From positions 4,070 to 68,069 of the forward strand of contig CAZWKU010000002.1 of NCBI GenBank assembly GCA_964634595.1: a stretch of DNA of 64,000 nucleotides, in the 5' to 3' direction. Below the pieces are notes generated by a model. That model was not told the DNA's origin. It saw only the letters and a list, made by a program, of their open reading frames with translations, and ran no database searches. Position numbers and translations under genes: made by a program. Within the stretch, counting starts at the first letter, position 1, and the number at the start of each line of letters is the position of its first letter. Origin of the DNA: an uncultured Candidatus Saccharibacteria bacterium (GTDB lineage Bacteria; Patescibacteriota; Minisyncoccia; Phycocordibacterales; Phycocordibacteraceae). Shown here in pieces: positions 2,454 to 63,592 of this stretch.

Positions 2454-2488
2454 ACAGCATTCTTTCTAGGTCGTGGTAAAATAAACTT

Positions 2489-3086: not shown

Positions 3087-3090
3087 GAGC

Positions 3091-3666: not shown

Positions 3667-3672
3667 CCACAG

Positions 3673-3712
3673 CTATCCACTATCTCAAACGGTCGCACAA
3701 ATTAGTGGATAC
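3673..3712. promoter_or_regulatory. Operator-like palindrome copy 3 (CTATCCACTATCTCAAACG-N12-TAGTGGATA)
   Basis: Same half-sites as copy 2, located just after the PaaX-like stop. Confidence 0.4.
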
Positions 3713-24954: not shown

Positions 24955-25017
24955 GTTGTGGAGGCATCATAACAAAAACACTCCTTCAAGGGGAGCGTTT
25001 TTGTTTAGGGGAGAGGA

Positions 25018-46188: not shown

Positions 46189-47700
46189 TTATGCGCGCAA
46201 CTCCGCGATAAGGGTATCGAGATCTTTGTGGCGCTCTACCACCGTTTCGTGCTGGAGTACCCAAAAGAGTTTTTGTTTGAGTGCGTCGATGAACTCATGA
46301 TCGTGGGTGACGAGCAGCAAGGTGCTTTTAGAGGTATTACAGGCGTTTAAAAGAATCTCCCAGGTCACTTCATCGAGGTGGTTGGTTGGCTCGTCGAGAA
46401 TCAAAACATCGGGCTTGCCGCCAAATACGAGAGCAAAGCGAAGGCGCATGCGCTGTCCGCCCGAGAGGCTCCCGAGTGGGGTCTCCATGGTGTCAGTGTC
46501 GAACTTCATCGCCCCAAGCGCAGCACGTCCCGCTTCGTCGGTGAGTGAGATCTCGCTCGTGACTACTTCAAGAGGGGTGCGGGATCCGTCAAACTCTGTG
46601 TGCTGGTCGAAGTACGCAATTTTCAGTTTTTCAGCCCAGGTGATCGTACCTGTTTTGAGGGGGAGCTTGCCGAGGAGACATTTAAGAAAGGTTGACTTGC
46701 CTGAGCCATTGCGCCCCAAAAGTACGATGTGGCTCCCGGTACGCATTTCAAGATTTACGTTATGAAAGGCGCTCTTTTTGCTACCCCCATATGCAAACGA
46801 AGTATCAAGTATGCGGCACAAGAGTTTCCCAGAGTGGAGCGCCGAGTCGCTTTGGCGAAGCGATATTTTGGTGCGCGTATCTTCAGCGCGGCCCGACTCT
46901 TTGTGCTTCGCTTTGAGCCCCTCGAGCTCGGCTTTAAACTTATGGTACGTTGCGGTTTCTTTACCGCGAAATGCTTTTTGCCCCATAATAACCACGGCCT
47001 CGCGCAGCTGTTTGATTCGCTTCGTCTCGGTGTCAAAGGCTCGCTGCAGGCCCTCAATACGGCTCAAGCGGTGTTCTATATACTCGTCATACCCACCATG
47101 CGAAAGGTGCGCCTGACCCTGCGCGATCTCGATAACTTTTTCAGCAAGGGAGTCAATCATAAGCCGGTCGTGTGAGATGAAAAGGACGCCCCCGCGATAC
47201 TCTTGTAATAGCGCAATAAGCTCAAGTCGGCTCACAATATCGAGGTGGTTTTCGGGCTCATCAAGCAGAAGAAAGTCGGGTTGTACCGCGATGCCGCATG
47301 AAAGCGCAAGGATTTTTTGCTGACCGCCTGAAAGTAGGTGACACTCTTTGCTCGCGTGTTTTTCAAGGTTAAAACCGAGCTCTTTACCAAGCGCGTAGAC
47401 CCTTTTCGCAAGAGTCACACCGGCGTTTTGGGCGACATACTGAGCGACCGTGGTGCCAGTGTCACTTACTACAAATTCTTGCGGCACATACAAGGTGCGG
47501 ATATGGCCACTCTTTTCGATCGACCCCCTGTTTGGTTCGATAACCCCAGCAATTATTTTGAGCAGGGTAGACTTGCCTGAGCCGTTGTCGCCCACGATGC
47601 ACACTTTCTCATTCTCGGCGCATTTCAAGGTCACCGCCTCAAGGAGCGGTTTTTCAGTAAACGAGTGGCCGATGTTTTTAAGCGAAATCGTTTTTGCCAT
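46189..47700 (-). CDS. ABC-F family ATPase (two tandem ABC domains, no TMD)
   Basis: Walker A GDNGSGKST and GRNGSGKST; two LSGGQ signatures. Confidence 0.85.
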   Translation of the reverse strand: MAKTISLKNIGHSFTEKPLLEAVTLKCAENEKVCIVGDNGSGKSTLLKIIAGVIEPNRGSIEKSGHIRTLYVPQEFVVSDTGTTVAQYVAQNAGVTLAKRVYALGKELGFNLEKHASKECHLLSGGQQKILALSCGIAVQPDFLLLDEPENHLDIVSRLELIALLQEYRGGVLFISHDRLMIDSLAEKVIEIAQGQAHLSHGGYDEYIEHRLSRIEGLQRAFDTETKRIKQLREAVVIMGQKAFRGKETATYHKFKAELEGLKAKHKESGRAEDTRTKISLRQSDSALHSGKLLCRILDTSFAYGGSKKSAFHNVNLEMRTGSHIVLLGRNGSGKSTFLKCLLGKLPLKTGTITWAEKLKIAYFDQHTEFDGSRTPLEVVTSEISLTDEAGRAALGAMKFDTDTMETPLGSLSGGQRMRLRFALVFGGKPDVLILDEPTNHLDEVTWEILLNACNTSKSTLLLVTHDHEFIDALKQKLFWVLQHETVVERHKDLDTLIAELRA

Positions 47701-50583: not shown

Positions 50584-51315
50584 AATAACGTTGCATAATA
50601 TATTAATGCCCCGTCTTGCTCGCGTTGATGTCGGAAACGAAATATATCATGTCATTAATCGCGCGAATGGTCGCCTCAAGATCTTTGAATCATCACAGGA
50701 TTATCAACTCTTCGAACAGCTTCTTCTTGATGCTCAAGAACTAACCGACATGCGTATTCTCGCCTATGTCATTATGCCAAACCACTGGCACTTGTTGTTG
50801 TGGCCTATGCATGATGGCGATCTCGCACAATTCATGCATCGTCTCTCTAACACCCACACCAGGCGTATGCATACTGCTACCGGCACTATTGGGAATGGGC
50901 ACTTATACCAAGGTCGATACAAATCTTTTCTGGTTGATTCAAACAACTACCTTCTTACGATTATCAAATACATTGAACGCAATCCAGTGCGTGCCAGACT
51001 CTCCAATGCATGTGAAGAATGGCAATGGGGAAGTGCTTGGAGGCGGTCGCAGGGAACCTCAAAGCAAAAGAAACTTATACACCCCTCACCTGAACCGCTA
51101 CCACACCCGTACCTTAAGTGGATAAATACCGCCGAAAAGCCCAATGACCTCTCCATCATACGCGCCTCCGTTAACAAGAACATTCCTTTTGGCAGAGATT
51201 CGTGGGTTGACACAATGATATCCACCTATCACCTAGAGACAACGAAGCGTGGAGTGGGGCGGCCCAGAAAGAATCAGAACACACATTCATCAAAAGAATC
51301 GTGACTGTCCCCATT
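50558..51315 (+). mobile_element. RAYT/IS200-like (HuH Y1 transposase) element copy 1, 758 bp, 19-bp terminal inverted repeats AATGGGGACAGTCACGATT
   Basis: TIRs at 50558-50576 and 51297-51315; near-identical copy at 57578-58336. Confidence 0.75.
50591..51304 (+). CDS. REP-associated tyrosine transposase-like HuH (Y1) transposase
   Basis: HuH motif NHWHLLLW, catalytic Tyr region YQGRYKS, YIERNPVRARL. Confidence 0.8.
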   Translation: MHNILMPRLARVDVGNEIYHVINRANGRLKIFESSQDYQLFEQLLLDAQELTDMRILAYVIMPNHWHLLLWPMHDGDLAQFMHRLSNTHTRRMHTATGTIGNGHLYQGRYKSFLVDSNNYLLTIIKYIERNPVRARLSNACEEWQWGSAWRRSQGTSKQKKLIHPSPEPLPHPYLKWINTAEKPNDLSIIRASVNKNIPFGRDSWVDTMISTYHLETTKRGVGRPRKNQNTHSSKES

Positions 51316-51770
51316 TGTTCCCCCGTATTCGCCCTCCAACACCCGCATGGCTGAAGGCCAAGGGTGGGGGTGAAATAGCGCTGCTCCTGGACTGCACGGA
51401 TAGATGAGGTGCAAGTTCAGTCGGTAACCAGTCCACGGACGTCACAAACGCTCAACGAAAGGTGGATGGTAATTAATAAAAACGGTATTCCACCCTTCTT
51501 CATCGGCAAGTAATTTCTTTAACTCACCTTTGGCTTTATAAAGGACGTCGAGCATCTGTATGCCCTCATAGATTGCCACGTGTACCATACCATTATTATA
51601 CTAAAGTGCAAGCATTGCATCGCTGGCGACCTAATTTTCAAGAGGCGAAGCAACTATGAAAATGGAAGTACTCTTGGGGTGCTAGAGAGCGTTCTGAATC
51701 CTGAGCTTTTCGAAGGAGTACCTTTGTATAAAAGAAAGTCCGCCCATCTCCGTGAGGAAAAGGGCGGGAG

Positions 51771-52069: not shown

Positions 52070-52226
52070 AACGCGCCTCCGTTAACAAGAACATTCCTTT
52101 TGGCAGAGATTCGTGGGTTGACACAATGATATCCACCTATCACCTAGAGACAACGAAGCGTGGAGTGGGGCGGCCCAGAAAGAATCAGAACACACATTCA
52201 TCAAAAGAATCGTGACTGTCCCCATT
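52070..52226 (+). mobile_element. Solo right-end fragment (157 bp) of the RAYT element including TIR
   Basis: Near-identical to 51160-51315, including 4 bp of flank (GTTC). Confidence 0.65.
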
Positions 52227-52636
52227 TGTTCATGGCACTCTTTGCTCGCGTTTTTCTCAAGATCAAAGCCGAGCTCTTTACCAAGAGCGTAGACCCTCTT
52301 CGCGAGAGTCACGCCAGCGTTTTGGGCGACATACTGAGCGACAGTGGTGTCGGTGCCACCTGTCACAAATTCTTGTGGCACATACAAGGTGCGGATATGG
52401 CCGCTTTTTTCTAGCGACCCACTGTTCGGTTCGATAACCCCAGCAATTATTTTGAGCAGGGTAGATTTGCCCGAACCATTATCGCCCACGATACATACTT
52501 TTTCGTTTTCAGCACATTTCAAAGTTACCGCCTCAAGGAGCGGTTTTTCAGTAAACGAGTGGCCGATGTTTTTTAATGAAATCGTTTTTGTCATTGAGTA
52601 TGAGGAGCCTAGCAAAAAACACGCTCTTTTACTATC
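52227..52636 (-). pseudogene. Diverged partial duplicate of the abcF 5' end (codes ~122 N-terminal aa) fused to the transposon end fragment
   Basis: ~88% nt identity to 47338-47748. MTKTISLKNIGHSFTEKPLLEAVTLKCAENEKVCIVGDNGSGKSTLLKIIAGVIEPN. Confidence 0.65.
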
Positions 52637-52689
52637 AGCTCTCAAAAAGAAAAGCCGCCCGAGAGCGGCTTTTCGTGTGTGGGCGGGAG

Positions 52690-52830
52690 TCACGGGTTTT
52701 TCGAGGGTGGGTCGTTTTGTTTTCTTGCAAATCGCTTCTTTATTGCGCTCATTGTTTGTGTGCCAAACACCATATCGATGCCAATTTGCATTTAGTTTCC
52801 TCCTGTTGCCCCGTGAGAATTACCTTTGTA
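52690..52830 (-). pseudogene. Internally deleted duplicate of the DUF454 gene region
   Basis: Homology to 51763-51800 and 51985-52030 with the coding middle missing. Confidence 0.4.
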
Positions 52831-53709: not shown

Positions 53710-53889
53710 AGGTGTAAATAGTGCTTTTATAGAGACAGTATAGTCTATTTAGCTCTAAAAGTCAATCTTTAGTGAATAAGGACTAGAAACTACCACTTAT
53801 TCACTAGAATCAACCACCAAGCCCCGCAGGGGGCGGGGTATGGCGTGATGCATGGGCTTAGTGCCAGAGGGTGAGTTTGGGGAGGGTCA

Positions 53890-53942
53890 GTTCGAACCTG
53901 TGAGGTATAGAAAAAGGCCGTGTCCCAAATTGGAACACGGCC
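53890..53942. repeat. Partial member of intergenic repeat family (GTTCGAACCTGTG..TATAGAAAAAGG plus hairpin)
   Basis: Shares 3' half of the motif listed at 54306. Confidence 0.4.
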
Positions 53943-54305
53943 CGTGTTGTATCAGAGACTCGTTCAGTCTCCGCCCCCGCCGCCCCCTCCGGAGTCGCTG
54001 CCGCCCGAATCGTAGCTACCGGAGTCGCTCGGGGAACTGGGCTCATTGTGGTGAGAGCCACGTTCGTGCGAACCGCTGTGCGAAGGTTCGTTGCTCGAAA
54101 GAAGCTGCATCAGAATCATAGTGTTAAGAATACTGCCGTCATCGGAGCAATAGCTTCCGTTCGACTGTTGCACGTATGTACGACCCTGATGGACGACCTT
54201 TTGGGGTCGACTTTTTCTATTTCGATTCACAGAACACCTCTCTGTTTATGGGTGATTACCCCTGAATGAACAGGACGGCAGTATCTTAGCACGCCATACA
54301 CATAT

Positions 54306-54388
54306 TGTCAATATCTAGCCCCGCTGGGTAGAGAACGTTCGAACCTTTGTGTAAAAAGAAAACCGCCCAAACGGACGATCTTCCGTTA
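54306..54388. repeat. Intergenic repeat family member: GTCAATATCTAGCCCCGCTGGGTAGAGAACGTTCGAACCTTTGTGTAAAAAGAAAA plus hairpin
   Basis: Conserved block shared with 56501, 57169, 61251, 61741, 62631. Lies right after the yjjX stop. Confidence 0.6.
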
Positions 54389-54399
54389 GGCAGTCGGAT

Positions 54400-54930
54400 T
54401 TAATTATTCATGTAGTGCTCGAAATGAATGGGTCGCACCAAAGCGCACTGGAGGGCTTGCACCAAGAACTCTTCGCGCTTCAGCTTCCCGCCTGAGAGAT
54501 AGTGCATAGGGTCTTTCTCTCCGCCATAGCCGCGCTTTTTGATGATTTCGCCGAGCTCGCTCTTTTCTGCGAACGTCTGTTCGGCGATGTCCCGAGGAAT
54601 CGGAAACTCTGCCCCGAAGGCAACCGAACGGCCGCCGTTTGAGCCGAGCACTACGATGCACGCTTGATCAAACCACAGGCCGTTGCGCTGGACCAGGCCG
54701 CTCTCAATGCCGATGGCAGCACCAGCATTCTCGACGGCGTTCCAGGCTGCTTGGGCACGATTGCTTGCACCAAGCTCCATTTCTTCAACGCCAACGGGCT
54801 GGATGCTGACACCCGACTCGGATTTGTGGGCGATAATCTCGAAAGGGTATGTCATCAAACTCTTGCACACGCTCTCTACCGCACGAAGCTTCAGAGCGCT
54901 TTCGGTTCCGACAGCAATTCTCATGGTCAT
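54400..54930 (-). CDS. Non-canonical purine NTP phosphatase (YjjX/inosine-xanthosine triphosphatase family)
   Basis: MRIAVGTESALKLRAV N-terminus typical of YjjX. Start set at internal ATG. Confidence 0.65.
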   Translation of the reverse strand: MTMRIAVGTESALKLRAVESVCKSLMTYPFEIIAHKSESGVSIQPVGVEEMELGASNRAQAAWNAVENAGAAIGIESGLVQRNGLWFDQACIVVLGSNGGRSVAFGAEFPIPRDIAEQTFAEKSELGEIIKKRGYGGEKDPMHYLSGGKLKREEFLVQALQCALVRPIHFEHYMNN

Positions 54931-55030
54931 ATGATTCTCCGTTGGTTTATGCTCCATTTCTGGCGGTAGATTGTCATTATATCGCGTATTTGACAAGATG
55001 TCCCGCCTTTTTGCTATACTCTTCATAATC

Positions 55031-55507
55031 ATGAAAATCTATGTCCTTGGCAGCACCCATTTCAAAGTACGGATGGTCGAATGCAAAGAAGAACTTTGCG
55101 CTCTCGGCTACGACGGCTGGATACATCCTCACTATGAAGAGTTTGTGCGGGGCGGGCGGCAAGACCAGGTTGCTCGCTGGACGACAGGCGACCCAACGGA
55201 GCTTGCGAAGATAAAGCGAGAAAACAACTACCTCCACGACCACTATAAGCACATCCTCGCAAGCGATGCGATACTCGTTGTGAATGATGAGAAGAACGGC
55301 ATCAAAAACTACATCGGTGGCAACGTTCTCATGGAGATGGGACAAGCATACGTTAACCATAAGAAGATATTCCTCCTGAACGGCATACCCGAAGGCCTTT
55401 CCTATCTCTCTGAAATAGAGTCCATGGATCCGATCTGTTTGGATGGGAAACTCGGGAACATTAATTTAGGGCAGGGAAGTACACAACGTTCACAAGTTCA
55501 CCTCTAG
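55031..55507 (+). CDS. Nucleoside 2-deoxyribosyltransferase-like protein
   Basis: MKIYVLGS...GGNVLMEMGQA pattern. Start set at internal ATG. Confidence 0.45.
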   Translation: MKIYVLGSTHFKVRMVECKEELCALGYDGWIHPHYEEFVRGGRQDQVARWTTGDPTELAKIKRENNYLHDHYKHILASDAILVVNDEKNGIKNYIGGNVLMEMGQAYVNHKKIFLLNGIPEGLSYLSEIESMDPICLDGKLGNINLGQGSTQRSQVHL

Positions 55508-55607
55508 CTCCGCTCTCTAGAAAACGTTTCCTGTCCTGAGTCAGCGAAGGAGAACCTGCGTATAAAAAGAAAAAGCCCGGCGGTGAAGCAGGGCTTCTCC
55601 GTCGGGC

Positions 55608-55922
55608 TTATGTATTGCAGAGGGCTATCGCCGTCTTCAACCAAGCAAATTCGCATTGCGGGACCCCGGCATCCTCAATTGTCATTACTAGGTCTGCTAG
55701 ATTAAGTATGTCGAAATCCCCCGCACTCCCCTTAATCTGAAGCAACGCATCACAAGTTACTTTTTCAAGCTTTTCTATTGTTTCAAAACCCGCCTCAATA
55801 AGAAGAGCTGGTGTTGTCTCGTCTTCGAACTTGAGAGTATTCAGATGAGTTGATGCTGTGCTCACAGTTGTCTCCTTTAGAACTTTCAATACCAGTATGA
55901 CACCAGTGTTTGAGTCTGTCAA
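55608..55922 (-). CDS. Hypothetical protein (non-ATG start, weak)
   Basis: ORF only, TTG start, no clear RBS. Confidence 0.2.
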   Translation of the reverse strand: MTDSNTGVILVLKVLKETTVSTASTHLNTLKFEDETTPALLIEAGFETIEKLEKVTCDALLQIKGSAGDFDILNLADLVMTIEDAGVPQCEFAWLKTAIALCNT

Positions 55923-56009
55923 TACCTACATAATGGTTCTATAGCTTGGCACCACCCGCTAATACCAAAATAAATCGATAATCTGCGGTGTCCGTGTAAA
56001 CTACTTGGT

Positions 56010-56414
56010 ATGAAAAAGGACTTTCAGCGGTGGACGACGAAGAAAGAACAACTCAATGATACCGAGGGCACAGCCCTTTTCCACGAACGCGAGGTGTGGT
56101 GGTGTGCCCTCGGTGCGAATATTGGCTTTGAACAGGATGGCAGTAGTGAGCTGTTCACGCGCCCCGTCGTCGTACTCTCCAAGTTCAACCTTGATGCGTG
56201 CCTTGTCGTACCGCTAACCGCTAAGCCCAAGAAGGGCAAGTATTACTTCTCGGTGGGCAACGTCTCGGGGCGCGACGCGGTCGCGGTGCTCTCGCAAATC
56301 CGCTTTGTAGACCGTAAGCGGCTGGCTGTGAAGATCGCCACGATGGAACAAGAGACTTTTGATGCACTCACGAAGGTGGTCGTCAAAGCGTGCTTCCCGA
56401 ATCTTACCCCCTAA
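56010..56414 (+). CDS. MazF/PemK-like toxin-fold protein (putative type II toxin), no obvious antitoxin partner
   Basis: EVWWCALGANIGFEQDG...RPVVVLS...VPLT pattern resembling the PemK/MazF SH3-like barrel. Confidence 0.45.
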   Translation: MKKDFQRWTTKKEQLNDTEGTALFHEREVWWCALGANIGFEQDGSSELFTRPVVVLSKFNLDACLVVPLTAKPKKGKYYFSVGNVSGRDAVAVLSQIRFVDRKRLAVKIATMEQETFDALTKVVVKACFPNLTP

Positions 56415-56500
56415 ATGTTTTCTCCCCGCCTTTTACAGCGGGGAGCAGGCCGAAGCCGTTTGTTCAAGTATCATATCAGAGAGCGAGATGAAAAGTCAAT

Positions 56501-56548
56501 GGGGGTTTCGAACCTTTGTGTAAAAGAAAAGCCGTCCTCCAACGGCTT
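56501..56548. repeat. Intergenic repeat family member (GGTTTCGAACCTTTGTGTAAAAGAAAAG plus hairpin AGCCGT...ACGGCT)
   Basis: Follows the stop of minus-strand gene 56568..57107. Confidence 0.55.
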
Positions 56549-56567
56549 TTCATTAAAGAGCGAGACT

Positions 56568-57107
56568 TTAGTCCGGGATCAGTCCACTGCGCTTGGCTTC
56601 GCCAAACATGGCAATCAGGTCACCTTCATGCAATAAATCTCCCGTCTTCGTATCGGTCCATACAACCTGACCTGCAGTGGCTCCGGCCACTCGATCTGTC
56701 AAGGTGTGAACTGAAGGGTTCACTTGTCCTGTTCGGTCGAGGGCAACGAAACGAATAATATCTTGGCAAAAGGTTGAACTACCTAGTGCAAGAACCATTA
56801 CGTTTCCGGTTGAATCTCCTTTCTTTTTTCCTTTTGTCAGCGCCAAGAATGTCTCGGCGACGACATCGATCATCTCGATCGGCATACTGAAGATGTTTAT
56901 GCCTCCAGCCTCAATCATGTATTGTGGGCCTTCGGTGAACAAAGCACCCTCGAATTTCTTTGGTTTCGAGAGAAGCTGAATATTCTTCGCTTCCCAGGCC
57001 TTCAGAAAAACGGCGGCAAATGAAGCTGCAAGGACATTCGGTGGAACAACTCTTCCTTCCTGAAAGGGGCTGATACTTGCGGCAATTACTTGCCTAGACT
57101 GCTTGTT
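56568..57107 (-). CDS. Hypothetical protein
   Basis: ORF with internal ATG start; no recognisable domain. Confidence 0.4.
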   Translation of the reverse strand, partial: NKQSRQVIAASISPFQEGRVVPPNVLAASFAAVFLKAWEAKNIQLLSKPKKFEGALFTEGPQYMIEAGGINIFSMPIEMIDVVAETFLALTKGKKKGDSTGNVMVLALGSSTFCQDIIRFVALDRTGQVNPSVHTLTDRVAGATAGQVVWTDTKTGDLLHEGDLIAMFGEAKRSGLIPD

Positions 57108-57168
57108 CATTTGGGCTATTCCCTCATGTTTCCTGTAAATTATGGTAGCACGCATCTAAATATACGTC

Positions 57169-57249
57169 AATACCTAGCTCCGCTGGGTGGAGGATCTTCG
57201 AACTTGTTTGGTGTAAAGAAAAACACCGGGCCCTTTCGGATCCCGGTGG
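57169..57249. repeat. Intergenic repeat family member (AATACCTAGCTCCGCTGGGTGGAGGATCTTCGAACTTGTTTGGTGTAAAGAAAAA plus hairpin CCGGG...CCCGG)
   Basis: Downstream of a short minus-strand ORF (57286-57447, ~54 aa). Confidence 0.55.
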
Positions 57250-57482
57250 TTAAGGTGTTTAGCGATTTGCGCATCTTTCGAGTTCTTTGATCGCCCATTC
57301 GAGAGCGCTAAGAATAAATCCATCACCGGAAGCGGGGTGCGTCGGGCTTTCACTTTTATGCATCCGCTCAACATGCATTTCACAAGCTTTCTTCAGCCCT
57401 TCTAGAGAGTAAGAGCTTGTCATAGCAGGGTTCCTTCTACTAGTTGGTTCGACGATTACAATACTCTATTTGCTATAAATGT

Positions 57483-57553
57483 CAGCTCCGCGGGTAAGTA
57501 GGCTTGCCCGCTGTCGCCTCGTTCAAAAACAAAAAAGCCCGGCCGGCAGAATG
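57483..57553. repeat. Second repeat family (GCTCCGCGGGTAAGTAGGCTTGCCCGCTGTCGCCTCGTTCAAAAACAAAAAAGCCCG) copy 1, abutting RAYT copy 2 left end
   Basis: 58-bp block identical at 62548-62605. Confidence 0.55.
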
Positions 57554-57577
57554 CAGAATGGGGACAGCAGAATGCAG

Positions 57578-58336
57578 AATGGGGACAGTCACGATTTAAA
57601 TCAAAATAACGTTGCATAATATATTAATGCCCCGTCTTGCTCGCGTCGATGTCGGAAACGAAATATACCATGTCATTAATCGCGCGAATGGTCGCCTCAA
57701 AATCTTTGACTCGTCACAGGACTATCAGCTCTTCGAACAACTTCTTCTTGAGGCTCAAGAACTCACTGACATGCGTATTCTCGCCTATGTCATTATGCCA
57801 AATCACTGGCACTTGTTGTTGTGGCCTATGAATGATGGCGATCTCGCACAATTCATGCATCGTCTCTCTAACACCCACACCAGGCGTATGCATACTGCTA
57901 CCGGCACTATTGGGAATGGGCACTTATACCAAGGTCGATACAAATCTTTTCTGGTTGATTCAAACAACTACCTTCTTACGATTATCAAATACATTGAACG
58001 CAATCCAGTGCGTGCCAGACTCTCCAATGCATGTGAAGAATGGCAATGGGGAAGTGCTTGGAGGCGGTCGCAGGGAACCTCAAAGCAAAAGAAACTTATA
58101 CACCCCTCACCTGAACCGCTACCACACCCGTACCTTAAGTGGATAAATACCGCCGAAAAGCCCAATGACCTCTCCATCATACGCGCCTCCGTTAACAAGA
58201 ACATTCCTTTTGGCAGAGATTCGTGGGTTGACACAATGATATCCACCTATCACCTAGAGACAACGAAGCGTGGAGTCGGGCGGCCAAGAAAGAATCAGAA
58301 CACACATTCATCGAAAGAATCGTGACTGTCCCCATT
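57578..58336 (+). mobile_element. RAYT/IS200-like element copy 2 (759 bp) with 19-bp TIRs, tandem-duplicated left-end stub upstream (57549-57577)
   Basis: TIRs 57578-57596 and 58318-58336; ~99% identical to copy 1. Confidence 0.75.
57612..58325 (+). CDS. REP-associated tyrosine transposase-like HuH (Y1) transposase, copy 2
   Basis: 3 aa differences from copy 1 (E33D, D47E, H75N). Confidence 0.8.
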   Translation: MHNILMPRLARVDVGNEIYHVINRANGRLKIFDSSQDYQLFEQLLLEAQELTDMRILAYVIMPNHWHLLLWPMNDGDLAQFMHRLSNTHTRRMHTATGTIGNGHLYQGRYKSFLVDSNNYLLTIIKYIERNPVRARLSNACEEWQWGSAWRRSQGTSKQKKLIHPSPEPLPHPYLKWINTAEKPNDLSIIRASVNKNIPFGRDSWVDTMISTYHLETTKRGVGRPRKNQNTHSSKES

Positions 58337-58433
58337 TACTCACCTATCACCTAGAGACAACGAAGCGTGGAGTCGGGCGGCCAAGAAAGAATCAGAACAC
58401 ACATTCATCGAAAGAATCGTGACTGTCCCCATT
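58337..58433 (+). repeat. 97-bp tandem duplication of the element right end (second TIR at 58415-58433)
   Basis: 58240-58336 repeated exactly. Confidence 0.7.
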
Positions 58434-58883
58434 TACTTCATGCAGGAGCTTTTCCACTTCGTCGTTGGTGATTTTGTTCTTGGTGGCGAGTGCTTGCATT
58501 ATCTTGTCCCGCTTCTTGCGTTTGCGATCTTGGATTGCGACGCGGGCTTTGGTGAGCAAGTCGCGGATAGAGTGAGTTTGGGCGGTTGGTACAGGCACCG
58601 TCAAGGACGGCGGCAGGATCGGCTCAGCCTCAGGAGGCAACGGCTCATTTGGCGGTATTTGAGCCGTTTGGGTTGTGGATTGAGCGACCTGAGTTTCTTG
58701 ACGGTCATCCGTCTTAGAAACTGGAAGTGGTCCTTGTGACCCCGTTGCGGGTGTTTGAGGTGCTTCTGTGGGCGCGGGAGGAGTTTCAGGAGGCGTAACT
58801 GGCTCTGCGACAAGAGCGGGAGCTTCAACGGCAGGGCTCGGCGATTCTGGTGCTGGTTGCGGGGTGCTCTCTTCTGGGGGCAT
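58392..58883 (-). CDS. Proline-rich hypothetical protein whose last 14 codons and stop lie in the duplicated transposon end
   Basis: PxxP-rich N-terminus. C-terminal residues NGDSHDSFDECVF are the antisense of the IS right end. Confidence 0.35.
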   Translation of the reverse strand: MPPEESTPQPAPESPSPAVEAPALVAEPVTPPETPPAPTEAPQTPATGSQGPLPVSKTDDRQETQVAQSTTQTAQIPPNEPLPPEAEPILPPSLTVPVPTAQTHSIRDLLTKARVAIQDRKRKKRDKIMQALATKNKITNDEVEKLLHEVNGDSHDSFDECVF

Positions 58884-58924
58884 AGCTCAATTCTAACCCA
58901 TAGATGGGCTGTGCTTCAGGCGAA

Positions 58925-58956
58925 TAACTCAACCCGTTGGGTTATTCGCCTTGAGA
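58925..58956. repeat. Palindromic element GGCGAATAACTCAACCCGTTGGGTTATTCGCC upstream of grpB
   Basis: Perfect hairpin; related copy at 59584-59613. Confidence 0.5.
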
Positions 58957-59004
58957 GATTCTAGAGCATAAGGCCAGCCGTGGTTGTAGTGTTAAACTTT
59001 GCCT

Positions 59005-59538
59005 ATGAACGATGTCGGCTTAAAGCGAGGAACGGTGGAGCTTCGGGAACATAACCCGAAGTGGAAAGAGATTTTTGAAGAGGAGAAACAAATGCTTCTC
59101 GGACATTTCCCCGGCCAGATTCTCGAGGTCTCTCACGGCGGTAGTACTGCGATCCCTAAAATGCCGGCAAAACCTATTATCGACATGTTCGCAGTTGTCC
59201 CAGCATTGCGAGTGGCAGAAGATATGAGAAGCGAGTTAGAAAAGCTTGGCTATCACTATCGTGGTGAGGAGGGGGTGTCGGGAAGAATTTTGTATGCCAA
59301 GGGAGAAGAAGAAAAGCGAACGCATCATCTGCAGCTCGTTGAGCGCGAAGGGGACCAGTGGAAGAACCACCTTCTTATCAAGAACTATTATCTGCAACAT
59401 CCAGAAGTGGCGGAAGAATATGCATTACTTAAGCAGGAGCTGGCGGTAAAGTACCCGGAAAATCGTAGTGCTTATAGCAAAGGGAAAAACGAATTTGTGC
59501 AGGCTGTGATTGCGAAAGCGAAGACTAACGAAGTCTAA
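59005..59538 (+). CDS. GrpB-family (UPF0157) nucleotidyltransferase-fold protein
   Basis: GGSTAIPKMPAKPIIDM, HHLQLV motifs. Confidence 0.75.
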   Translation: MNDVGLKRGTVELREHNPKWKEIFEEEKQMLLGHFPGQILEVSHGGSTAIPKMPAKPIIDMFAVVPALRVAEDMRSELEKLGYHYRGEEGVSGRILYAKGEEEKRTHHLQLVEREGDQWKNHLLIKNYYLQHPEVAEEYALLKQELAVKYPENRSAYSKGKNEFVQAVIAKAKTNEV

Positions 59539-59583
59539 AAAGTATTCGAGAATTGAGGAAATACTAAACACTTCATCGCTTTG

Positions 59584-59613
59584 AGTGAATAACTCAACGG
59601 GTTGAGGTATTCG
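59584..59613. repeat. Palindromic element GAATAACTCAACGGGTTGAGGTATTC downstream of grpB
   Basis: Shares GAATAACTCAAC..GTTG with 58925-58956. Confidence 0.5.
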
Positions 59614-60022
59614 ATGTTTTGCCGAGGAATTCACGAATCATTCGAATATCGTCAAAATCTTTAGGACGGCCATATTCTTGTTTAAAATCCATCAAGCTTT
59701 CAAGAGTGATGAAGGGAATATTTTCTACTATTACTGCGTTCTTCAGTAACTCCTTTGCAGAAATACCGCCAGTTTTCCGACTTAGCTGTACATATAATTC
59801 AATATCTCCTTTCTTGAGCCATTCTTTGCCGGGGATTCCATGTTTAGTCCACGATCGGATTTCCCACCCTTCTTTTTTGCACTTTTCGAATAGTTTAGGC
59901 GTTACCACGATATCGAGATCGTTTGTCTTTCGAATGCCCATTGCAACCATGATTGCACTTCCTACAACGATATATTCGTTGGGCGGGAAATTCAATTCCT
60001 TTATTTCGGCAAAAATATCCAT
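59594..60022 (-). CDS. Minimal nucleotidyltransferase (Pol-beta superfamily NTase domain)
   Basis: VVGSAIMVAMGIRKTNDLDIVV (GS...DxD) motif; AT-rich. Confidence 0.5.
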   Translation of the reverse strand: MDIFAEIKELNFPPNEYIVVGSAIMVAMGIRKTNDLDIVVTPKLFEKCKKEGWEIRSWTKHGIPGKEWLKKGDIELYVQLSRKTGGISAKELLKNAVIVENIPFITLESLMDFKQEYGRPKDFDDIRMIREFLGKTSNTSTR

Positions 60023-60318
60023 TATTTTAGTGTGTAATAGACGGTTTTGCCGATATCGCCGTGCTGGGTGATCTTCCCCTCCTTTTCTAGCTCGTCCAAA
60101 TACCGCTCCGCTGTCGCGTTAGAAACTCCGGCTAGTTTTTCCACATCATTATTCTGAATTTTTCCGTGCTGCTGCACGAACGCGAGAAGCTTCTGCTTGT
60201 TCTCGGCTTTCTGTTCCATCTGCTTGGCGATAAATCCGGCATTCGTGTTTCGACGAGCGATGTACATCCCTAGTGCGATTCCGGCGAGAGCGACGAGGAT
60301 TAAGATAAGATAGTTCAT
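60022..60318 (-). CDS. Membrane-anchored winged-helix DNA-binding protein
   Basis: N-terminal TM helix; C-terminal HTH-like DVEKLAGVSNATAERYLDELEKEGKITQHG. Confidence 0.45.
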   Translation of the reverse strand: MNYLILILVALAGIALGMYIARRNTNAGFIAKQMEQKAENKQKLLAFVQQHGKIQNNDVEKLAGVSNATAERYLDELEKEGKITQHGDIGKTVYYTLK

Positions 60319-60321
60319 GTT

Positions 60322-60912
60322 TTAGTTTCGCTGGATGACAATACCACGATACGCAAAGAATTTCCTGAACTGAGCATAAGGTACAAAGACTCTTTCTTGT
60401 GAGCCGTTTGATTGAAAACCAGATGGGTTATTGATATAGAAACCTCGACTCCTGTCGTCATAACCGACGACCAAAATGAGATGCCCACCACGTTTCGGAG
60501 GATTACTTTCAGGATTTCGTATGTTTGGATGAACGGAAGCAATAACAAAATCGCCCCTACTTATTGCACCTTTGATTTCACAGAAAGAAAGTGCCGGAAT
60601 AGATTTCGCATTCAATCTGTACTCACTGCGGACGAAACTGCAAAACTCCGCATAGTAGAGTGGCGATATCTTCTTATCTTTTATCTTGAAGACTCCATAC
60701 TCTCCTGCCTTCTTTGCGAGCTTCACTAGTGGAATTGAAGCGTACTTTTTATCTCCGGCGGCGAGTATCATTTTAAAACACGCAATACCGCAGTCACTCC
60801 ATGTCCATCGCTCGTATTCGTCTTCATTATCAGCCCCCGACTGCACCCATAAGGGGTCTGTACTTAATGCAACCTCGCCGTGTATATATTTCTCTACTAG
60901 GTCGGCGGACAT
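60322..60912 (-). CDS. C39-like (Peptidase_C39_2) papain-fold cysteine peptidase
   Basis: Nucleophile SDCGIACFKMIL and His GGHLILVVGYDD. The 5' end of the longer ORF (to 60987) runs into an IS remnant; start placed at ATG 60912. Confidence 0.6.
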   Translation of the reverse strand: MSADLVEKYIHGEVALSTDPLWVQSGADNEDEYERWTWSDCGIACFKMILAAGDKKYASIPLVKLAKKAGEYGVFKIKDKKISPLYYAEFCSFVRSEYRLNAKSIPALSFCEIKGAISRGDFVIASVHPNIRNPESNPPKRGGHLILVVGYDDRSRGFYINNPSGFQSNGSQERVFVPYAQFRKFFAYRGIVIQRN

Positions 60913-60947
60913 GAACTGCGAATAGTATGGCGCTTCTACTGACGCAG

Positions 60948-61038
60948 AATGGGGACAGTCACGATTTAAATCAAAATAACGTTGCATAATATATCAGTGC
61001 CCCGTCTTGATCGCGTCGATGTCGGAAACGAAATATAT
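60948..61038 (+). mobile_element. Left-end remnant (~90 bp, with TIR) of a third RAYT element; rest deleted
   Basis: GCAGAATGGGGACAGTCACGATTTAAATCAAAATAACGTTGCATAATATAT...GTCGGAAACGAAATATAT then divergence. Confidence 0.6.
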
Positions 61039-61250
61039 ATCAAGGCTAGGGATGAACACGGTGGGACCGTGGGTACACATTTCTCTCACAAAATAAGTTC
61101 GTCGTCACTCACTTATTTCGCGAGCCGCCTCGCGCGACCCCTCGTGCTCTCGGGGTACCCCGCGCTCGCTTTCGAATCCTACACGAACTGCTCTTGCAGT
61201 TCTCCGCGGAGCACAGAAAAAGCGCCTTTCGGCGCCTCTTCTTTTTCTGT

Positions 61251-61340
61251 GCTCCGCTGGGTAGAAAATGTTCGAACCTTTGTATAAAAGAAAACCGCCT
61301 CGCCAGGAGAGCGACGAGGTCGGTCTCTTGAGCGAGGCGG
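61251..61340. repeat. Intergenic repeat family member (GCTCCGCTGGGTAGAAAATGTTCGAACCTTTGTATAAAAGAAAA plus long hairpin)
   Basis: Preceded by a nested hairpin 61208-61250 (GCACAGAAAAAGCGCCTTTCGGCGCCTCTTCTTTTTCTGTGC). Confidence 0.55.
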
Positions 61341-61343
61341 GCG

Positions 61344-61676
61344 CTAGTCTTCCTTCAGGTTGGCTATCGCTGCTGAAATTGCGGGCTCCAGTTCTCTGGG
61401 CGTATAGATTCTGAAACCCTCGGACATCCAAGCGGTGACACAATTGTTTTTGAAGTTTCCAGCAGCAATAACCGTTTGCATTTTGCTACTGGCGTAGAGG
61501 CCGCTGGCTTGTGCAAGGTCGAGATGACTAACGTGCCACCCAACGTAGAGAGTGTGTTTATTCCCCTCTCCCTTTGCGAGCAAGAATTTACCCAACCCAG
61601 CTCCTTTGCGAGCTTCTTTCCACACGACTTCAATTTCGAGGACTTTCATTTCGGTCTTTTTTGGTTTCCTCACCAC
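61344..61676 (-). CDS. Hypothetical protein
   Basis: ORF; probable start at internal ATG (MKVLEIEVVW). Confidence 0.35.
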   Translation of the reverse strand: MVRKPKKTEMKVLEIEVVWKEARKGAGLGKFLLAKGEGNKHTLYVGWHVSHLDLAQASGLYASSKMQTVIAAGNFKNNCVTAWMSEGFRIYTPRELEPAISAAIANLKED

Positions 61677-61740
61677 TTTGTTAGCGTCCTTGGCGCTGGT
61701 TGGAACATTCGTTATTATCTAAGCACAATATAGAAACGGT

Positions 61741-61828
61741 GTCAATACCTAGCTCCGCTGGGTAGAGAACGTTCGAACCTGTATATAAAAGAAAAACCGC
61801 CCGGAGCGCGGCGGAGACACTCCGGGCG
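61741..61828. repeat. Intergenic repeat family member (GTCAATACCTAGCTCCGCTGGGTAGAGAACGTTCGAACCTGTATATAAAAGAAAAA plus hairpin CGCCCGGAG...CTCCGGGCG)
   Basis: Best-preserved copy; follows the stop of 61839..62465. Confidence 0.6.
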
Positions 61829-61838
61829 CTTCAAGCGG

Positions 61839-62465
61839 TCAGTTCATCGAGCTACGTTGGGCGCTTTTCACTTTGCCCCATATTGAAGCGTGATAGAAAA
61901 GTTCTGCCACCTTCCCGCCTATGCGGAGCGGTTTACGGCTTGAATCCTGCAGACAATTCCAGTTATCGACTTTCGAAAGGAGAGGCTCACGTCGTCCTCC
62001 CTCCATCCACTTGAAGTTCCGGAGGATACTTGCCGCCTGGCTTTTGCTACGGCAGACCGCGAGGTGGAATGCGGAGTTCTCGTCGGCCCAGATGAGAATG
62101 CCTTCTCCTCTTGGGCCCGTAGGTAAGGGTCCCCAGAAACCTCCAAGCTCAGGTGGGGCAAACGCATCGACGCGGGCACCCGCACTCGTCATCGCCACAA
62201 GCATGTTGCCAAGACTGCTACCTGCATCCCCTAAGATTTCGACGACTTCGTCACTTGAAGTCGCGGGGAGTTCAGCAGAGACGCCCGTAAGCTCATCTCC
62301 ATGCTTCAAATTCTTTGTGGTGAGCAGGGATTGAATTTGCTCTTGAGACGAGCATACCCAGAGCCGGAGGTTGGGAGAACTGCCGCTTTCAGTACGGCCT
62401 TCGTCCCACTCGCAATGGGCCACCAAGGGTTGTTGCAAATGGGTCGGTCCAATGGTGAAGAACAC
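61839..62465 (-). CDS. Hypothetical protein
   Basis: ORF only. Confidence 0.35.
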   Translation of the reverse strand: MFFTIGPTHLQQPLVAHCEWDEGRTESGSSPNLRLWVCSSQEQIQSLLTTKNLKHGDELTGVSAELPATSSDEVVEILGDAGSSLGNMLVAMTSAGARVDAFAPPELGGFWGPLPTGPRGEGILIWADENSAFHLAVCRSKSQAASILRNFKWMEGGRREPLLSKVDNWNCLQDSSRKPLRIGGKVAELFYHASIWGKVKSAQRSSMN

Positions 62466-62547
62466 GGAACACCTCTTTGTTTTGAGTTCTATCGTGGACT
62501 ATAATACAAAAATACAAATTTGTCAGTTCGAACAAAATCTATTGCCC

Positions 62548-62620
62548 GGCTCCGCGGGTAAGTAGGCTTGCCCGCTGTCGCCTCGTTCAAAAACAAAAAA
62601 GCCCGATGAGGGCTCTTTTG
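62548..62620. repeat. Second repeat family copy 2, followed by terminator hairpin GCCCGATGAGGGC plus T-run
   Basis: Identical 58-bp block to 57483-57540. Confidence 0.55.
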
Positions 62621-62630
62621 TTTTATTCTC

Positions 62631-62701
62631 TCGGCTCCGCTGGGTAGAGAACGTTCGAACCTGTTTATAAAAAGAAAAGCCACCCAATAAGAGCGGGTGG
62701 C
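62631..62701. repeat. Intergenic repeat family member (GGCTCCGCTGGGTAGAGAACGTTCGAACCTGTTTATAAAAAGAAAA plus hairpin GCCACCC...GGGTGGC)
   Basis: Follows the stop of 62722..63273. Confidence 0.6.
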
Positions 62702-62721
62702 CCTTCAAGGGTGGCGGTAAT

Positions 62722-63273
62722 CTAAGTCATTGGTTTTCTGAGAATCGTTGAGCGTAGCTGCTGCCAGTGACTCTTGAGAAACTGCCAGAACTCGCGCCAG
62801 TCATTGCGAATCCCGCGAATAAATGATGGTTCCTGGAGCCGATATGTCGGCAGTGGGATAACCTCATGCGGGATGCCAAGCCAGTCTTGGTATACGCTCT
62901 TGTAGAGCGCAACGAAGTCTGCCGTGTTTGGACTCTCGATTGCTATTTTGACAACTCGCCGCCCGGGCGTATCGAGTGCTTCAGAAACGTTCGCTTTTGC
63001 TTCCCCGAGCGTGAACATCTTGAAATAGCTTTTACGATAGGCATCTTCAGGAAGACGAGGCAATGTGGTCACCCACATCTCATCCCGCAAGCTAATGACA
63101 TGTGCAGCGAGATGTTCTGTGGGTAGCGAATCATTCAACACTGACCACAAATCGAGTGTGCCGCAGGTTGAGCCGCAGATTCTAGACAAGCGCAAAATTT
63201 TCATAGAACTTCTCCTTTCGCTCTGCCGTGGCTTTACCACGGTCAGGCCATAGGCGCGCCAACATTGACGCAA
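62722..63273 (-). CDS. Hypothetical protein
   Basis: ORF only. Confidence 0.35.
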   Translation of the reverse strand: MRQCWRAYGLTVVKPRQSERRSSMKILRLSRICGSTCGTLDLWSVLNDSLPTEHLAAHVISLRDEMWVTTLPRLPEDAYRKSYFKMFTLGEAKANVSEALDTPGRRVVKIAIESPNTADFVALYKSVYQDWLGIPHEVIPLPTYRLQEPSFIRGIRNDWREFWQFLKSHWQQLRSTILRKPMT

Positions 63274-63592
63274 AATAAGTCTAGCATATTAAAATACTTT
63301 TGTCAATCTTTTGCTCCCCATTGCGGCCAAGTTCAGAATGGCAGATTGGGTACAGATTGAGCGCGACCTTCAATACAGTGGTCTCCTGTCATCGCCGTTC
63401 TTCGCAGATTTGACCTACGCATAAAGCGCATTTCATTGAGACAGGTTCAGAACTATTCGACTATGGTATGCTGGACACATGAACAAGATACCCCCGCAGG
63501 TTCTCTTCTTTTCAGGACAGATGCCACGTGAGGCAATCACTCAAACGAAAAAAGAAGGGCAACAAGCGGAACAATCAACAAAAGAAGTTCGG

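Follow-up and report, generated by a model that had tools for sequence, protein, structure and literature searches.

The 64,000-nt window analysed here, a stretch of contig CAZWKU010000002.1, contains a repeat island at 51.7-62.7 kb in which small genes are separated by copies of one short repeat. All coordinates given without a locus number are in window numbering, and related loci are numbered with L. We consider it fairly probable that this island is a cassette array anchored at a tRNA-Asn gene, and that the conserved core of the repeat is an att-type site for a putative, unlinked site-specific recombinase. The evidence lies in the anatomy of the units, in the likeness of the core to the 3' end of tRNA-Asn, in the anchoring and common orientation of the arrays, in their occurrence at a single locus per genome and in the presence of one cassette family in different neighbourhoods.

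Cassette units and the tRNA-Asn-like core

An nhmmer profile built from the window copies and a second scan with a multi-genome core hidden Markov model (HMM) located five full and three to four partial copies of the repeat, all in a single orientation and all between 51.7 and 62.7 kb. The full copies are plus-strand matches with E-values of 1e-17 to 1e-20 (Table 1), and a doubtful copy (E 0.06) lies at 51709-51737. Across the whole window, neither scan found a copy in 1-51000 or on the other strand. The repeat family had been proposed in an earlier note on this DNA and holds up well: the 31-nt block described there, with up to 3 mismatches, has 3 matches versus 0 in 100 shuffles, and de novo repeat finding recovers it as families D5-D8 and D13. 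A half copy placed by the note on the minus strand at 55917 had to be struck out; only TGTCAATACCTAC is present there, on the plus strand, and belongs to the promoter of gene 55608-55870 as its -35 region. The note did not contain the degenerate copy between convergent genes or the pair of variant-2 repeats, both of which are listed in Table 1.

Read on the minus strand, a unit consists of a sigma-70-type promoter, one or two genes, an intrinsic terminator and a core. The spacer between genes has the order stop codon, variable hairpin, TTTTCTTTTATACAAAGG, TTCGAAC(G/A)T(T/C)CTC(T/C)ACCCAGCGGAGC and then a promoter or a second hairpin, and the core itself, of ~28 bp, reads GGTTCGAAC(G/A)T(T/C)CTC(T/C)ACCCAGCGGAGC. 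In copy 62621-62681, for example, a T-run and ATAAACAGG are followed by the core TTCGAACGTTCTCTACCCAGCGGAGC. All eight adjoining hairpins fold stably (-16.5 to -31.4 kcal/mol, z -2.9 to -7.2), have minus-strand U-runs next to them, differ from each other in sequence and lie directly beyond the stop of a minus-strand open reading frame (ORF). They are ordinary intrinsic terminators of the minus strand, as had been read before, and the ORF positions agree with the earlier statement that the repeats lie directly past the stops of minus-strand genes.

The region's best promoter-like sites likewise lie on the minus strand. Those at 54311, 57170, 57485 and 56499 lie directly past a repeat copy and those at 62526 and 63306 directly past a variant repeat; the sites at 53765 and 55922 lie up to ~120 nt beyond a degenerate copy or have no copy ahead. 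The sequence next to a copy can take several forms. Copy 61736-61798 is followed by TAGGTA and then by the -35 hexamer TTGACA, copy 61241-61296 by a bidirectional hairpin in place of a promoter, and copy 56507-56533, in which the terminator-proximal part is retained and the core is mostly lost by internal deletion, directly by the -35 hexamer TTGACT. The promoter and terminator scans support the order terminator, conserved block, promoter that the note had suggested for these spacers, with the qualification that the promoter is present often, not always. Its statement that the block ends in a -35-like hexamer is correct for three of the five full copies, in which TATTGACA is found, and incorrect for the other two. 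The description of the region as a cassette-like array of small unrelated genes stands. The repeat was also considered as a miniature inverted-repeat transposable element (MITE) or mobile promoter-terminator element, and this was rejected because only the core is common to the copies, the hairpins and promoter spacers are unrelated and no terminal inverted repeats were seen.

The core closely resembles the 3' end of tRNA-Asn. When the consensus GGTTCGAACATCCTCCACCCAGCGGAGC is aligned with tRNA-Asn positions 51-73, which run from the T-loop to the base after the discriminator, 23 of the 23 tRNA positions are matched, with 5 extra bases in three small gaps. The alignment score is 32, compared with 11.3 +/- 2.2 for shuffled cores; none of 2000 shuffles reaches it, and the controls tRNA-Glu and tRNA-Ala, when aligned to the core, were not significant. 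Uninterrupted runs common to tRNA-Asn and the core are only 5-8 nt long. Among 57 copies, a 26-nt core is ~70-99% conserved at nearly every position, with one position at ~40-50%, and the same is true of the 22 among the 57 that fall outside the search pattern. Ahead of the core, the T-run and ATACAAA(C)AGG are moderately conserved, and conservation collapses directly after GGAGC. CCAGCGGAGC is retained in the cores irrespective of which acceptor stem the resident tRNA-Asn has (CTCCGGAGC, CGTCGGAGC, CGGGGGAGC and others), which argues for a mobile family of its own rather than for local duplications of the tRNA.

Other identities of the block were considered and dropped. A search of the whole window with Rfam 15 gave no match at gathering score, and at E up to 10 the region 51-63.5 kb gave only chance-level matches (E at least 0.48); the block thus has no Rfam match to a tRNA, ribozyme or intron. 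A D-arm likeness had suggested the 5' half of a plus-strand tRNA-like gene, which was abandoned because the minus-strand tRNA-Asn 3' end matches at 23/23. The block was further rejected as a primer-binding-site (PBS)-like primer site, as an Xer/dif-like site (11-6-11) and as a T-loop crossover site: by sequence reading, the core's two arms of 11 nt do not form inverted repeats, and a crossover in the T-loop would destroy the tRNA, while the tRNAs are observed intact.

No significant fold is predicted for the conserved block (z -0.9 to +1.4), nothing is conserved on the gene side of the hairpin, and no R''/R' inverted cores surround the hairpin. These results bear on the possibility of a true integron-type array, namely a cluster of attC sites lacking an integron integrase (CALIN), with unusual attC sites. 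Cassettes of ~0.3-1.5 kb in the same orientation, a variable hairpin adjoining a conserved sequence, and AAC directly followed by GTT within the window's core variant would all suit such an array. We nevertheless give it next to no credence, because the core lacks both a significant fold and the inverted R''/R' partners, no IntI-like gene is present in the ORFs examined, the cassettes carry their own promoters and the anchor is a tRNA gene instead of attI. The earlier judgement, that the layout is integron-like and the block is not an attC, is in line with this: there is no significant fold, no inverse core across the hairpin and no IntI.

The same note had considered it equally possible that the repeats are elements of the repetitive extragenic palindrome (REP) or bacterial interspersed mosaic element (BIME) type, spread by the REP-associated tyrosine transposases (RAYTs; Y1 HUH) of the island. 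Y1_Tnp genes are indeed present at 50591-51304 and 57612-58325, with another in L007, the plus strand of the core contains GTAG, as the note had observed, and a duplication in L028 ends in the RAYT-type motif TGTCCCCATTTA. However, another inverted repeat, GGGGACAGTCACGAT (8 copies), brackets the RAYT genes. In addition, the block is no palindrome, the core lacks a significant fold and the adjoining hairpins are all different, most arrays yielded no Y1_Tnp gene, this family is not among the recurrent ones of the array ORFs (ORFs of at least 160 amino acids (aa) only), and the cores are confined to one locus per genome. The two origins are therefore not on a par, and an origin of the core from RAYT activity is very unlikely.

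The distribution of the core was followed with two patterns. The window-specific block pattern gave no match among the species genomes (GTDB representatives), indicating that the window species' own genome is not a GTDB representative, and a single match in metagenomes, L001, in which the block lies ~750 nt downstream of tRNA-Asn(GTT) in the same orientation. The degenerate, strict core pattern was found at 22 loci in 185,579 species genomes. Patescibacteria metagenome-assembled genomes (MAGs) account for 21 of these, labelled Paceibacterota, Nomurabacteria, Kaiserbacteria, Parcubacteria or, for some bins, 'Saccharibacteria', and the remaining one lies on a contig of 2.6 kb that was binned as cyanobacterial. 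By the strict pattern, even contigs of 380-623 kb carry a single cluster each. The repeats are therefore not spread uniformly around the genome, the outcome that the note had named as speaking against cassettes, and the cassette idea is not refuted on this ground. Viral contigs gave no match with either pattern and hence no evidence for a phage attP.

In 15 loci of other genomes, tRNA-Asn(GTT) is present upstream of the copies. It is intact in seven of them (ARAGORN) and is in two halves with a group I intron between them in another seven (tRNA-Asn profile; Rfam, 58-80 bits). The last one, L039, was met independently via a cargo protein, without a DNA pattern, and has two degenerate cores only, which were recognised by eye. 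In the 14 loci found by pattern, every core match lies downstream of tRNA-Asn and is co-oriented with it; none is upstream and none is inverted. Profile searches detected 1-8 copies per 8-kb locus, including one-orientation arrays in L016 (7 copies), L025 (8) and L031 (7), with array units of ~0.3-1.5 kb that contain one or two ORFs each.

The group I intron (RF00028, 58-80 bits) splits tRNA-Asn(GTT) in the anticodon loop in L011, L012, L018, L019, L020, L021 and L031; examples are L021 882-1529 and L031 7012-7639. An HNH-like conserved ORF of ~120 aa, without a Pfam match, is located inside the intervening sequence of L021 and L031 and is also found just beside tRNA-Asn in L012 (intron-containing) and L017 (intact). 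This small recurrent ORF near tRNA-Asn was considered as a recombinase and rejected, as it is HNH-like and tied to the group I intron.

Judged by protein comparison, the window organism belongs to the core-bearing group of Patescibacteria. TruB and the gene beside it share synteny and 55-56% identity with their counterparts in the Nomurabacteria MAG L013, in which a core abuts the TruB stop, and homologues of the window cassette proteins are labelled Paceibacterota or Pacebacteria by NCBI. The window's own tRNA-Asn would be expected beyond base 64000 on the minus strand, and the array would run from there towards TruB.

It could also be argued that the core serves regulation or insulation as a site bound by a protein (an operator or a roadblock, for instance), that it travels with accessory genes and that its resemblance to tRNA-Asn is incidental. 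The core is located in the untranscribed gap between the terminator and, in many units, a promoter 0-10 nt away, and a long conserved non-palindromic sequence could bind a protein. This explanation is quite improbable: many cores have no promoter next to them (those between convergent genes in L001 and at window 55503, and the last cores, which have terminators next), the distance from the core to the -35 hexamer varies from 0 to >10 nt, and a regulatory role gives no account of the position downstream of tRNA-Asn, the co-orientation and the 23/23 match to the tRNA.

Cassettes in different neighbourhoods and the proposed mechanism

One cassette family that occurs in several arrays is that of the 208-aa gene, whose members are 59-68% identical to the window copy at the amino acid level. 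In the window, L005 and L009, the DNA homology begins at the -35 hexamer immediately past GGAGC, spans the promoter, ribosome-binding site, gene and terminator, and stops in the next core. The neighbours of this cassette are unrelated in the window, L005, L007/9 and L033/34, and cores flank it in all four. Further members of the family have fewer cores: L035 lacks a core on the terminator side and has a different tRNA-like 3' end on the upstream side, at the contig start, and L036-38 are without cores altogether. For the 160-aa cassette, comparison with L039 places the boundaries just past GGAGC and just ahead of TTCGAAC. L039 is a 279-kb Paceibacterota contig in which the homologue is the second of two cassettes directly past tRNA-Asn, with the backbone genes S30AE, fmt and def beyond the two. 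The cargo across loci is very diverse and rarely common to loci, and includes NTPase_I-T, methyltransferases, NUDIX, UDG, MsrA, MatE, ice-binding proteins, a histidine kinase and many family-less ORFs. NTPase_I-T was tried as a second case of the same cassette in different arrays and was not counted, since the proteins of the window and L027 are only 27% identical. These comparisons between genomes suggest that the cassettes are mobile.

In the proposed mechanism, a circular cassette with one core would recombine with the 3' end of tRNA-Asn or with another core, and the crossover would take place in or next to the common (C)GGAGC end. The tRNA would remain intact, the cassette promoter would come to lie directly past it, and the core would be placed beside the old flank of the tRNA. 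Repeated events would stack cassettes in one orientation, with the terminator and promoter insulating each cassette as its own expression unit. The window island would then be the distal part of an array that starts, in related genomes, at the 3' end of tRNA-Asn(GTT). The recombinase would act in trans and be encoded neither in nor next to the array.

The junctions at the tRNA agree with a crossover at this position. In L001, L017, L023 and L024, a cassette promoter comes immediately after the intact tRNA-Asn. Beyond an array's last core there is an A-run, a hairpin and a T-run terminator, much as beyond tRNA-Asn without an abutting cassette (L020, L022, L028). Crossover at (C)GGAGC would give the junctions observed, whereas crossover in the T-loop would give a broken tRNA, which is not seen. 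RecA-type recombination needs longer homology than the runs of 5-8 nt shared by the tRNA and the core, and these runs are therefore too short for RecA, which favours a site-specific enzyme.

Several results weigh against this mechanism. A recombinase linked to the arrays was looked for and not found: the ~50 window ORFs scanned with Pfam include RAYT Y1_Tnp genes and no tyrosine or serine recombinase, no recurrent recombinase family is present in a pooled set of 136 ORFs (at least 160 aa; 24 loci; Pfam), none of the 10 largest array ORFs is a recombinase (Pfam), and none is encoded within 10 kb on either side of tRNA-Asn in L039. The enzyme would consequently have to act in trans. Cassette gain or loss at the strain level was not seen either, as the L003 and L004 sequences match the window exactly and L007-L010 do not differ among themselves. 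The earlier note had proposed both an associated recombinase and cassette-level variation among close relatives as checks, and neither turned up in the window ORFs, the related loci or the same-species contigs. The decay of core scores with distance from the tRNA is only a trend (permutation p 0.11). Since the same-species contigs are identical and the decay is only a trend, mobility rests on comparison between genomes. Moreover, the window (1-64000) contains no tRNA by ARAGORN, which places its own tRNA-Asn outside; the same-strain contigs L003 and L004 extend past the window end by 355 and 315 nt, both stop in a RAYT repeat, and the 315-nt overhang of L004 has no tRNA-Asn by the tRNA-Asn profile. 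Finally, the diverged block variant X lies upstream of the 160-aa cassette in the window and downstream of its 158-aa homologue in L039, and this position on opposite sides bears on which half of the core travels with the cassette.

The lack of a recombinase linked to any array would be expected if the core were a portable homology patch, with cassettes, taken up as DNA by bacteria that possess competence genes, being inserted, replaced or deleted by RecA-type recombination between cores of 26-45 bp. The core would then be conserved because cassettes with good cores spread best. A ComEC-type competence gene beside the L005 array and the interchangeable core variants that flank one cassette family are in keeping with this explanation, as is the direct repeat in L028, which runs 105 nt past the tRNA end, as Campbell-type integration via longer homology predicts. 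Runs of 5-8 nt, however, cannot explain first cassettes exactly at the tRNA 3' end in >10 genomes, and recognition by a protein is a better fit to the sharp end of conservation at GGAGC and to the near-identity of cores across distant lineages with differing tRNA-Asn acceptor stems. As an account of the whole system, the homology patch is rather unlikely; within arrays, units may well be reshuffled by homologous recombination between cores once DNA has been taken up. Integration by a site-specific enzyme at the tRNA-Asn 3' end therefore remains our preferred explanation, in which recombination at the core, the position of the crossover and the action of the enzyme in trans are putative.

Feature coordinates and neighbouring elements

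The features of the island are collected in Table 1.

Table 1. Repeat copies, tRNA-Asn-like pieces, cassette genes, terminators and promoter-like sites of the repeat island.
Feature	Position	Strand	Evidence
Full copy	62621-62681	minus	nhmmer E 4e-19; core HMM 44.5 bits
Full copy	61736-61798	minus	nhmmer E 2e-20; exact match to the block of the earlier note
Full copy	61241-61296	minus	nhmmer E 7e-18; 94% identity to solo copy of metagenome locus L001
Full copy, variant TTCGAAGATCCTCCACCCAGCGGAGC, promoter next	57160-57222	minus	nhmmer E 6e-17; multi-genome core HMM 44.6 bits
Full copy	54302-54364	minus	nhmmer E 6.5e-20; promoter TTGACA-17-TAAGAT with TG extension next
Partial copy	56507-56533	minus	nhmmer E 2e-5; sequence reading
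Degenerate copy between convergent genes	55503-55574	minus	nhmmer E 3e-4; repeat families D6, D13
Degenerate/partial copy (TTTTTCTATACCTCACAGGTTCGAAC, diverged beyond)	53890-53915	minus	nhmmer E 3.5e-3; core HMM 4e-3; D8 alignment
Variant-2 repeat: T-run, then GAACGAGGCGACAGCGGGCAAGCCTACTTACCCGCGGAGC	57485-57541	minus	D20, 100% identical to 62549-62605
Variant-2 repeat, second copy, between block 62621-62681 and promoter of 208-aa cassette	62549-62605	minus	D20
Inverted tRNA-Asn-3'-like fragment (TTCGAATCCTAC, 19-nt insert, CTCCGCGGAGC)	61171-61212	plus	Sequence reading; faces 61241-61296 across palindromic hairpin
Diverged block variant X (minus strand ...TTCTGAACTTGGCCGCAATGGGGAGC), directly upstream of 160-aa gene promoter	63313-63369	minus	By eye
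Cassette gene, 160 aa, no Pfam family	62722-63204	minus	70%-identical homologue in L039
Cassette gene, 208 aa, no Pfam family	61839-62465	minus	Homologues flanked by cores in four different neighbourhoods
Cassette gene, 110 aa, no Pfam family	61344-61676	minus	ORF, Pfam scan
Cassette gene, 54 aa	57259-57423	minus	ORF
Cassette gene, ~180 aa, no Pfam family	56568-57110	minus	ORF, Pfam scan
Cassette gene, NTPase_I-T (YjjX-like)	54400-54924	minus	Pfam PF01931, E 1.6e-29
Cassette gene, 88 aa, no Pfam family	53964-54230	minus	ORF, Pfam scan
Terminator of 160-aa gene	62674-62706	minus	-20.9 kcal/mol, z -4.4, U-run; terminator scan
Terminator of 208-aa gene	61794-61832	minus	-26.7 kcal/mol, z -4.2; homologous to same-cassette terminators in L005, L035
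Terminator of 110-aa gene	61295-61340	minus	-31.4 kcal/mol, z -6.2
Terminator of 54-aa gene	57224-57248	minus	-17.8 kcal/mol, z -2.9
Terminator of gene 56568-57110	56526-56551	minus	-16.5 kcal/mol, z -4.3
Terminator of gene 55608-55870	55573-55609	minus	-23.1 kcal/mol, z -5.4
Terminator of NTPase_I-T gene	54361-54395	minus	-19.2 kcal/mol, z -3.7
Terminator of 88-aa gene	53915-53943	minus	-23.4 kcal/mol, z -7.2; terminator scan
Promoter-like site, 160-aa cassette, TTGACA-17-TAGACT with TG	63278-63306	minus	Scan; promoter and 5' untranslated region conserved in L039
Promoter-like site, 208-aa cassette, CTGACA-17-TATAGT	62498-62526	minus	Scan; conserved in L005, L009, L033
Promoter-like site, 110-aa cassette, TTGACA-17-TTAGAT, TG-extended	61717-61745	minus	Read by analogy with 54283-54311; below the scan's rule
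Promoter-like site, gene 56568-57110, TTGACG-17-TACCAT with TG	57142-57170	minus	Scan
Promoter-like site, 88-aa gene, TTGACA-17-TAAGAT with TG	54283-54311	minus	Scan

Other tRNA-like pieces are present beside the cores. The first variant-2 repeat ends in a resident-type tRNA-Asn 3' end, at once followed by the -35 hexamer CTGACA. Its end, TACCCGCGGAGC, occurs twice in the window versus 0 expected and is the 3' end of the L001/L023-type tRNA-Asn; relatives of this repeat in L020 end in the 3' end of the tRNA resident there. Variant X, which was not detected by nhmmer, is by eye ~80% identical over 56 nt to the sequence after the homologous cassette in L039. Together with the inverted fragment, the variant-2 repeat and X would fit a locus with many recombination events at tRNA-Asn-like sites. 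The inverted fragment is joined to its neighbouring core copy by a near-perfect 52-nt palindrome at 61206-61257 (GCGGAGCACAGAAAAAG...CTTTTTCTGTGCTCCGC), and similar arrangements of core, hairpin and inverted acceptor end are found in L012, L024 and L027.

The 5' untranslated region (UTR) of the 160-aa cassette family (window 63205-63283, minus strand; L039 9930-10000; L041 1250-1324) is better conserved than the protein, with ~95% DNA identity to L039 (by eye) compared with 70% amino acid identity. In a distant homologue, its hairpin shows a compensatory change from CCGTGG/CCACGG to CCCAG/CTGGG. The region has no Rfam match and may be a cis-regulatory RNA. A PemK/MazF-like toxin gene at 56010-56414 on the plus strand has no adjacent antitoxin ORF, and a strong promoter-like site at 56470-56499 on the minus strand, a leftover of a deleted block copy, is directed antisense into the toxin gene's 3' end; an antisense RNA antitoxin is conceivable.

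The two RAYT-type Y1_Tnp genes of the island are near-identical and are accompanied by a remnant at 60944-61037. The two genes and the remnant are each bracketed by inverted copies of GGGGACAGTCACGAT, which are located at 50510, 50560, 51298, 52209, 57581, 58319, 58416 and 60951. This REP family is a different one from the core block, and the array is interrupted by it between 57.5 and 61.2 kb. Segmental duplications lie beside the RAYT copies (51160-51320 = 52071-52231 = 58181-58341, and 52233-52532 versus 47339-47638), and one of them is a fragment (52082-52693) with 87% identity to part of the ABC-F ATPase gene 46189-47700; the segmental duplications point to recent rearrangement of the distal part of the island. 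In L028 (5443-7900), one and the same flank of 105 nt, with the RAYT-type motif at its end, comes after both tRNA-Asn and the second core. Between the two are a fragment that by eye resembles the C-terminal end of an IS30-type transposase and a second tRNA-like gene at 6698-6771 (Rfam tRNA, 47.9 bits).

Outside the island, a low-GC patch (0.47) at 2435-3710 contains a PaaX_M (Cas2-like domain) gene at 3091-3666, flanked by three CTATCCACTATCT... repeats at 2435, 3039 and 3673. A COX2-like gene (42531-43406; Pfam COX2) is adjacent to a 644-aa ORF (40594-42528) that is a candidate COX1. A COX2-like gene is unusual for Patescibacteria, and the genome is otherwise Patescibacteria-like, with small rpoB and rpoC. 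A short-period repeat GCCACCGCC/ATAGCC (D9, D15) at 25024-25123 is located just 5' of the minus-strand ORF 24232-24954. The plus-strand ORF 24533-25021 is overlapped by the repeat at that same end, and translation of the repeat on the minus strand would give a Gly/Tyr-rich stretch.

Comparison with known systems

Among the closest known systems are the tycheposons of Prochlorococcus, in which tRNA genes serve as island seeds, partial-tRNA repeats lie between tandem insertions, and new arrivals push older ones deeper into the island, with degenerate remnants scattered (bioRxiv 10.1101/2020.12.28.424599). The arrays described here share the co-oriented position downstream of a tRNA, namely tRNA-Asn in 15 related loci, the degenerate distal copies and the separation of units by direct repeats of the 3' part of the tRNA, here the core with its 23/23 match and the resident-type 3' ends. 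They differ in that the units are only ~0.3-1.5 kb, with one or two genes and without replication or excision genes or an integrase; elements of such tRNA-anchored islands encode an integrase (tyrosine recombinase) of their own. Also, the repeat is a diverged variant conserved across the phylum, with 5 extra bases, and not a copy of the resident tRNA, each unit has a promoter and a terminator, and no recombinase was found nearby.

The asn-tRNA islands of Enterobacteria are large, have their own P4-type integrase each and carry exact tRNA direct repeats of 17-20 bp. In these islands, which include the high-pathogenicity island (HPI), ICEKp1 and relatives, the 3' end of tRNA-Asn is an integration hotspot (PMC4891358). 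The target is thus the same, whereas the arrays studied here are integrase-less and made of single-gene cassettes.

REPs are conserved palindromes with a 5' GTAG that are dispersed over the genome and bracket their RAYT. The core repeats are likewise short and intergenic, lie near terminators and share an island with RAYT genes; in contrast, their conserved part is unstructured, their hairpins are variable, they occur at a single locus and the RAYTs are associated with another REP. The pdif modules of Acinetobacter plasmids have 28-bp XerC/XerD sites in alternating orientation and a recombinase encoded elsewhere. Small modules without their own recombinase gene, bounded by short conserved sites, are common to both, but the sites described here are direct repeats, tRNA-like, chromosomal and tRNA-anchored, and their 11-nt arms are not inverted repeats.

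A literature search found no description of integrase-less cassettes of one or two genes, with promoter and terminator, that are stacked at tRNA-Asn in Patescibacteria and bounded by a variant of the tRNA end conserved across the phylum, and a 2025 survey of Patescibacteria genomic islands does not mention tRNAs, integrases or cassettes, judged by term counts. There is a substantial chance that this is a distinct gene-capture system with a putative unrecognised recombinase. More broadly, and with somewhat less assurance than for the island itself, Patescibacteria, at least the Paceibacteria-type lineages, may own an integron-like gene-capture platform, in which integrase-less single-gene cassettes with promoter and terminator are stacked at the tRNA-Asn 3' end by a putative recombinase encoded elsewhere, via a ~28-bp site that is conserved across the phylum and mimics the end of the tRNA. 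Patescibacteria represent a large share of bacterial diversity, and their gene gain is poorly understood. If true, these tiny genomes would have in this platform a main route for gaining and reshuffling accessory genes. A single hypervariable tRNA-Asn locus of plug-in units, each made of promoter, gene, terminator and site, would explain where much of the flexible gene pool is seated and maybe also MAG assembly breaks. The 26-nt core could be used as a sequence tag for harvesting accessory genes from metagenomes, and it points to a putative recombinase with a tRNA-like target.

Integron arrays, except CALINs, have IntI and attI at the head, their attC sites are imperfect palindromes, R''(RYYYAAC)...R'(GTTRRRY), with cores that pair in a folded strand, and their cassettes are mostly promoterless, co-oriented and ~0.5-1 kb long. 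As in integrons, including superintegrons with species-specific attC sites and CALINs, small unrelated co-oriented genes are each followed by a site-like repeat, with one fixed anchor and a similar unit size. Unlike in integrons, there is no attC-like palindrome and no R''/R', the arrays are anchored at the tRNA-Asn 3' end, and IntI was not found. Membership among the integrons therefore fails on attC structure, IntI and attI, and the comparison is a good one as a working analogy for the anchor, the stacked cassettes and the cassette-borne site. The cassettes of these arrays are promoter-bearing and terminated, and thereby independent of a common Pc promoter. Such insulated cassettes, each expressed on its own, would contrast with those of integrons, whose expression depends on array position.

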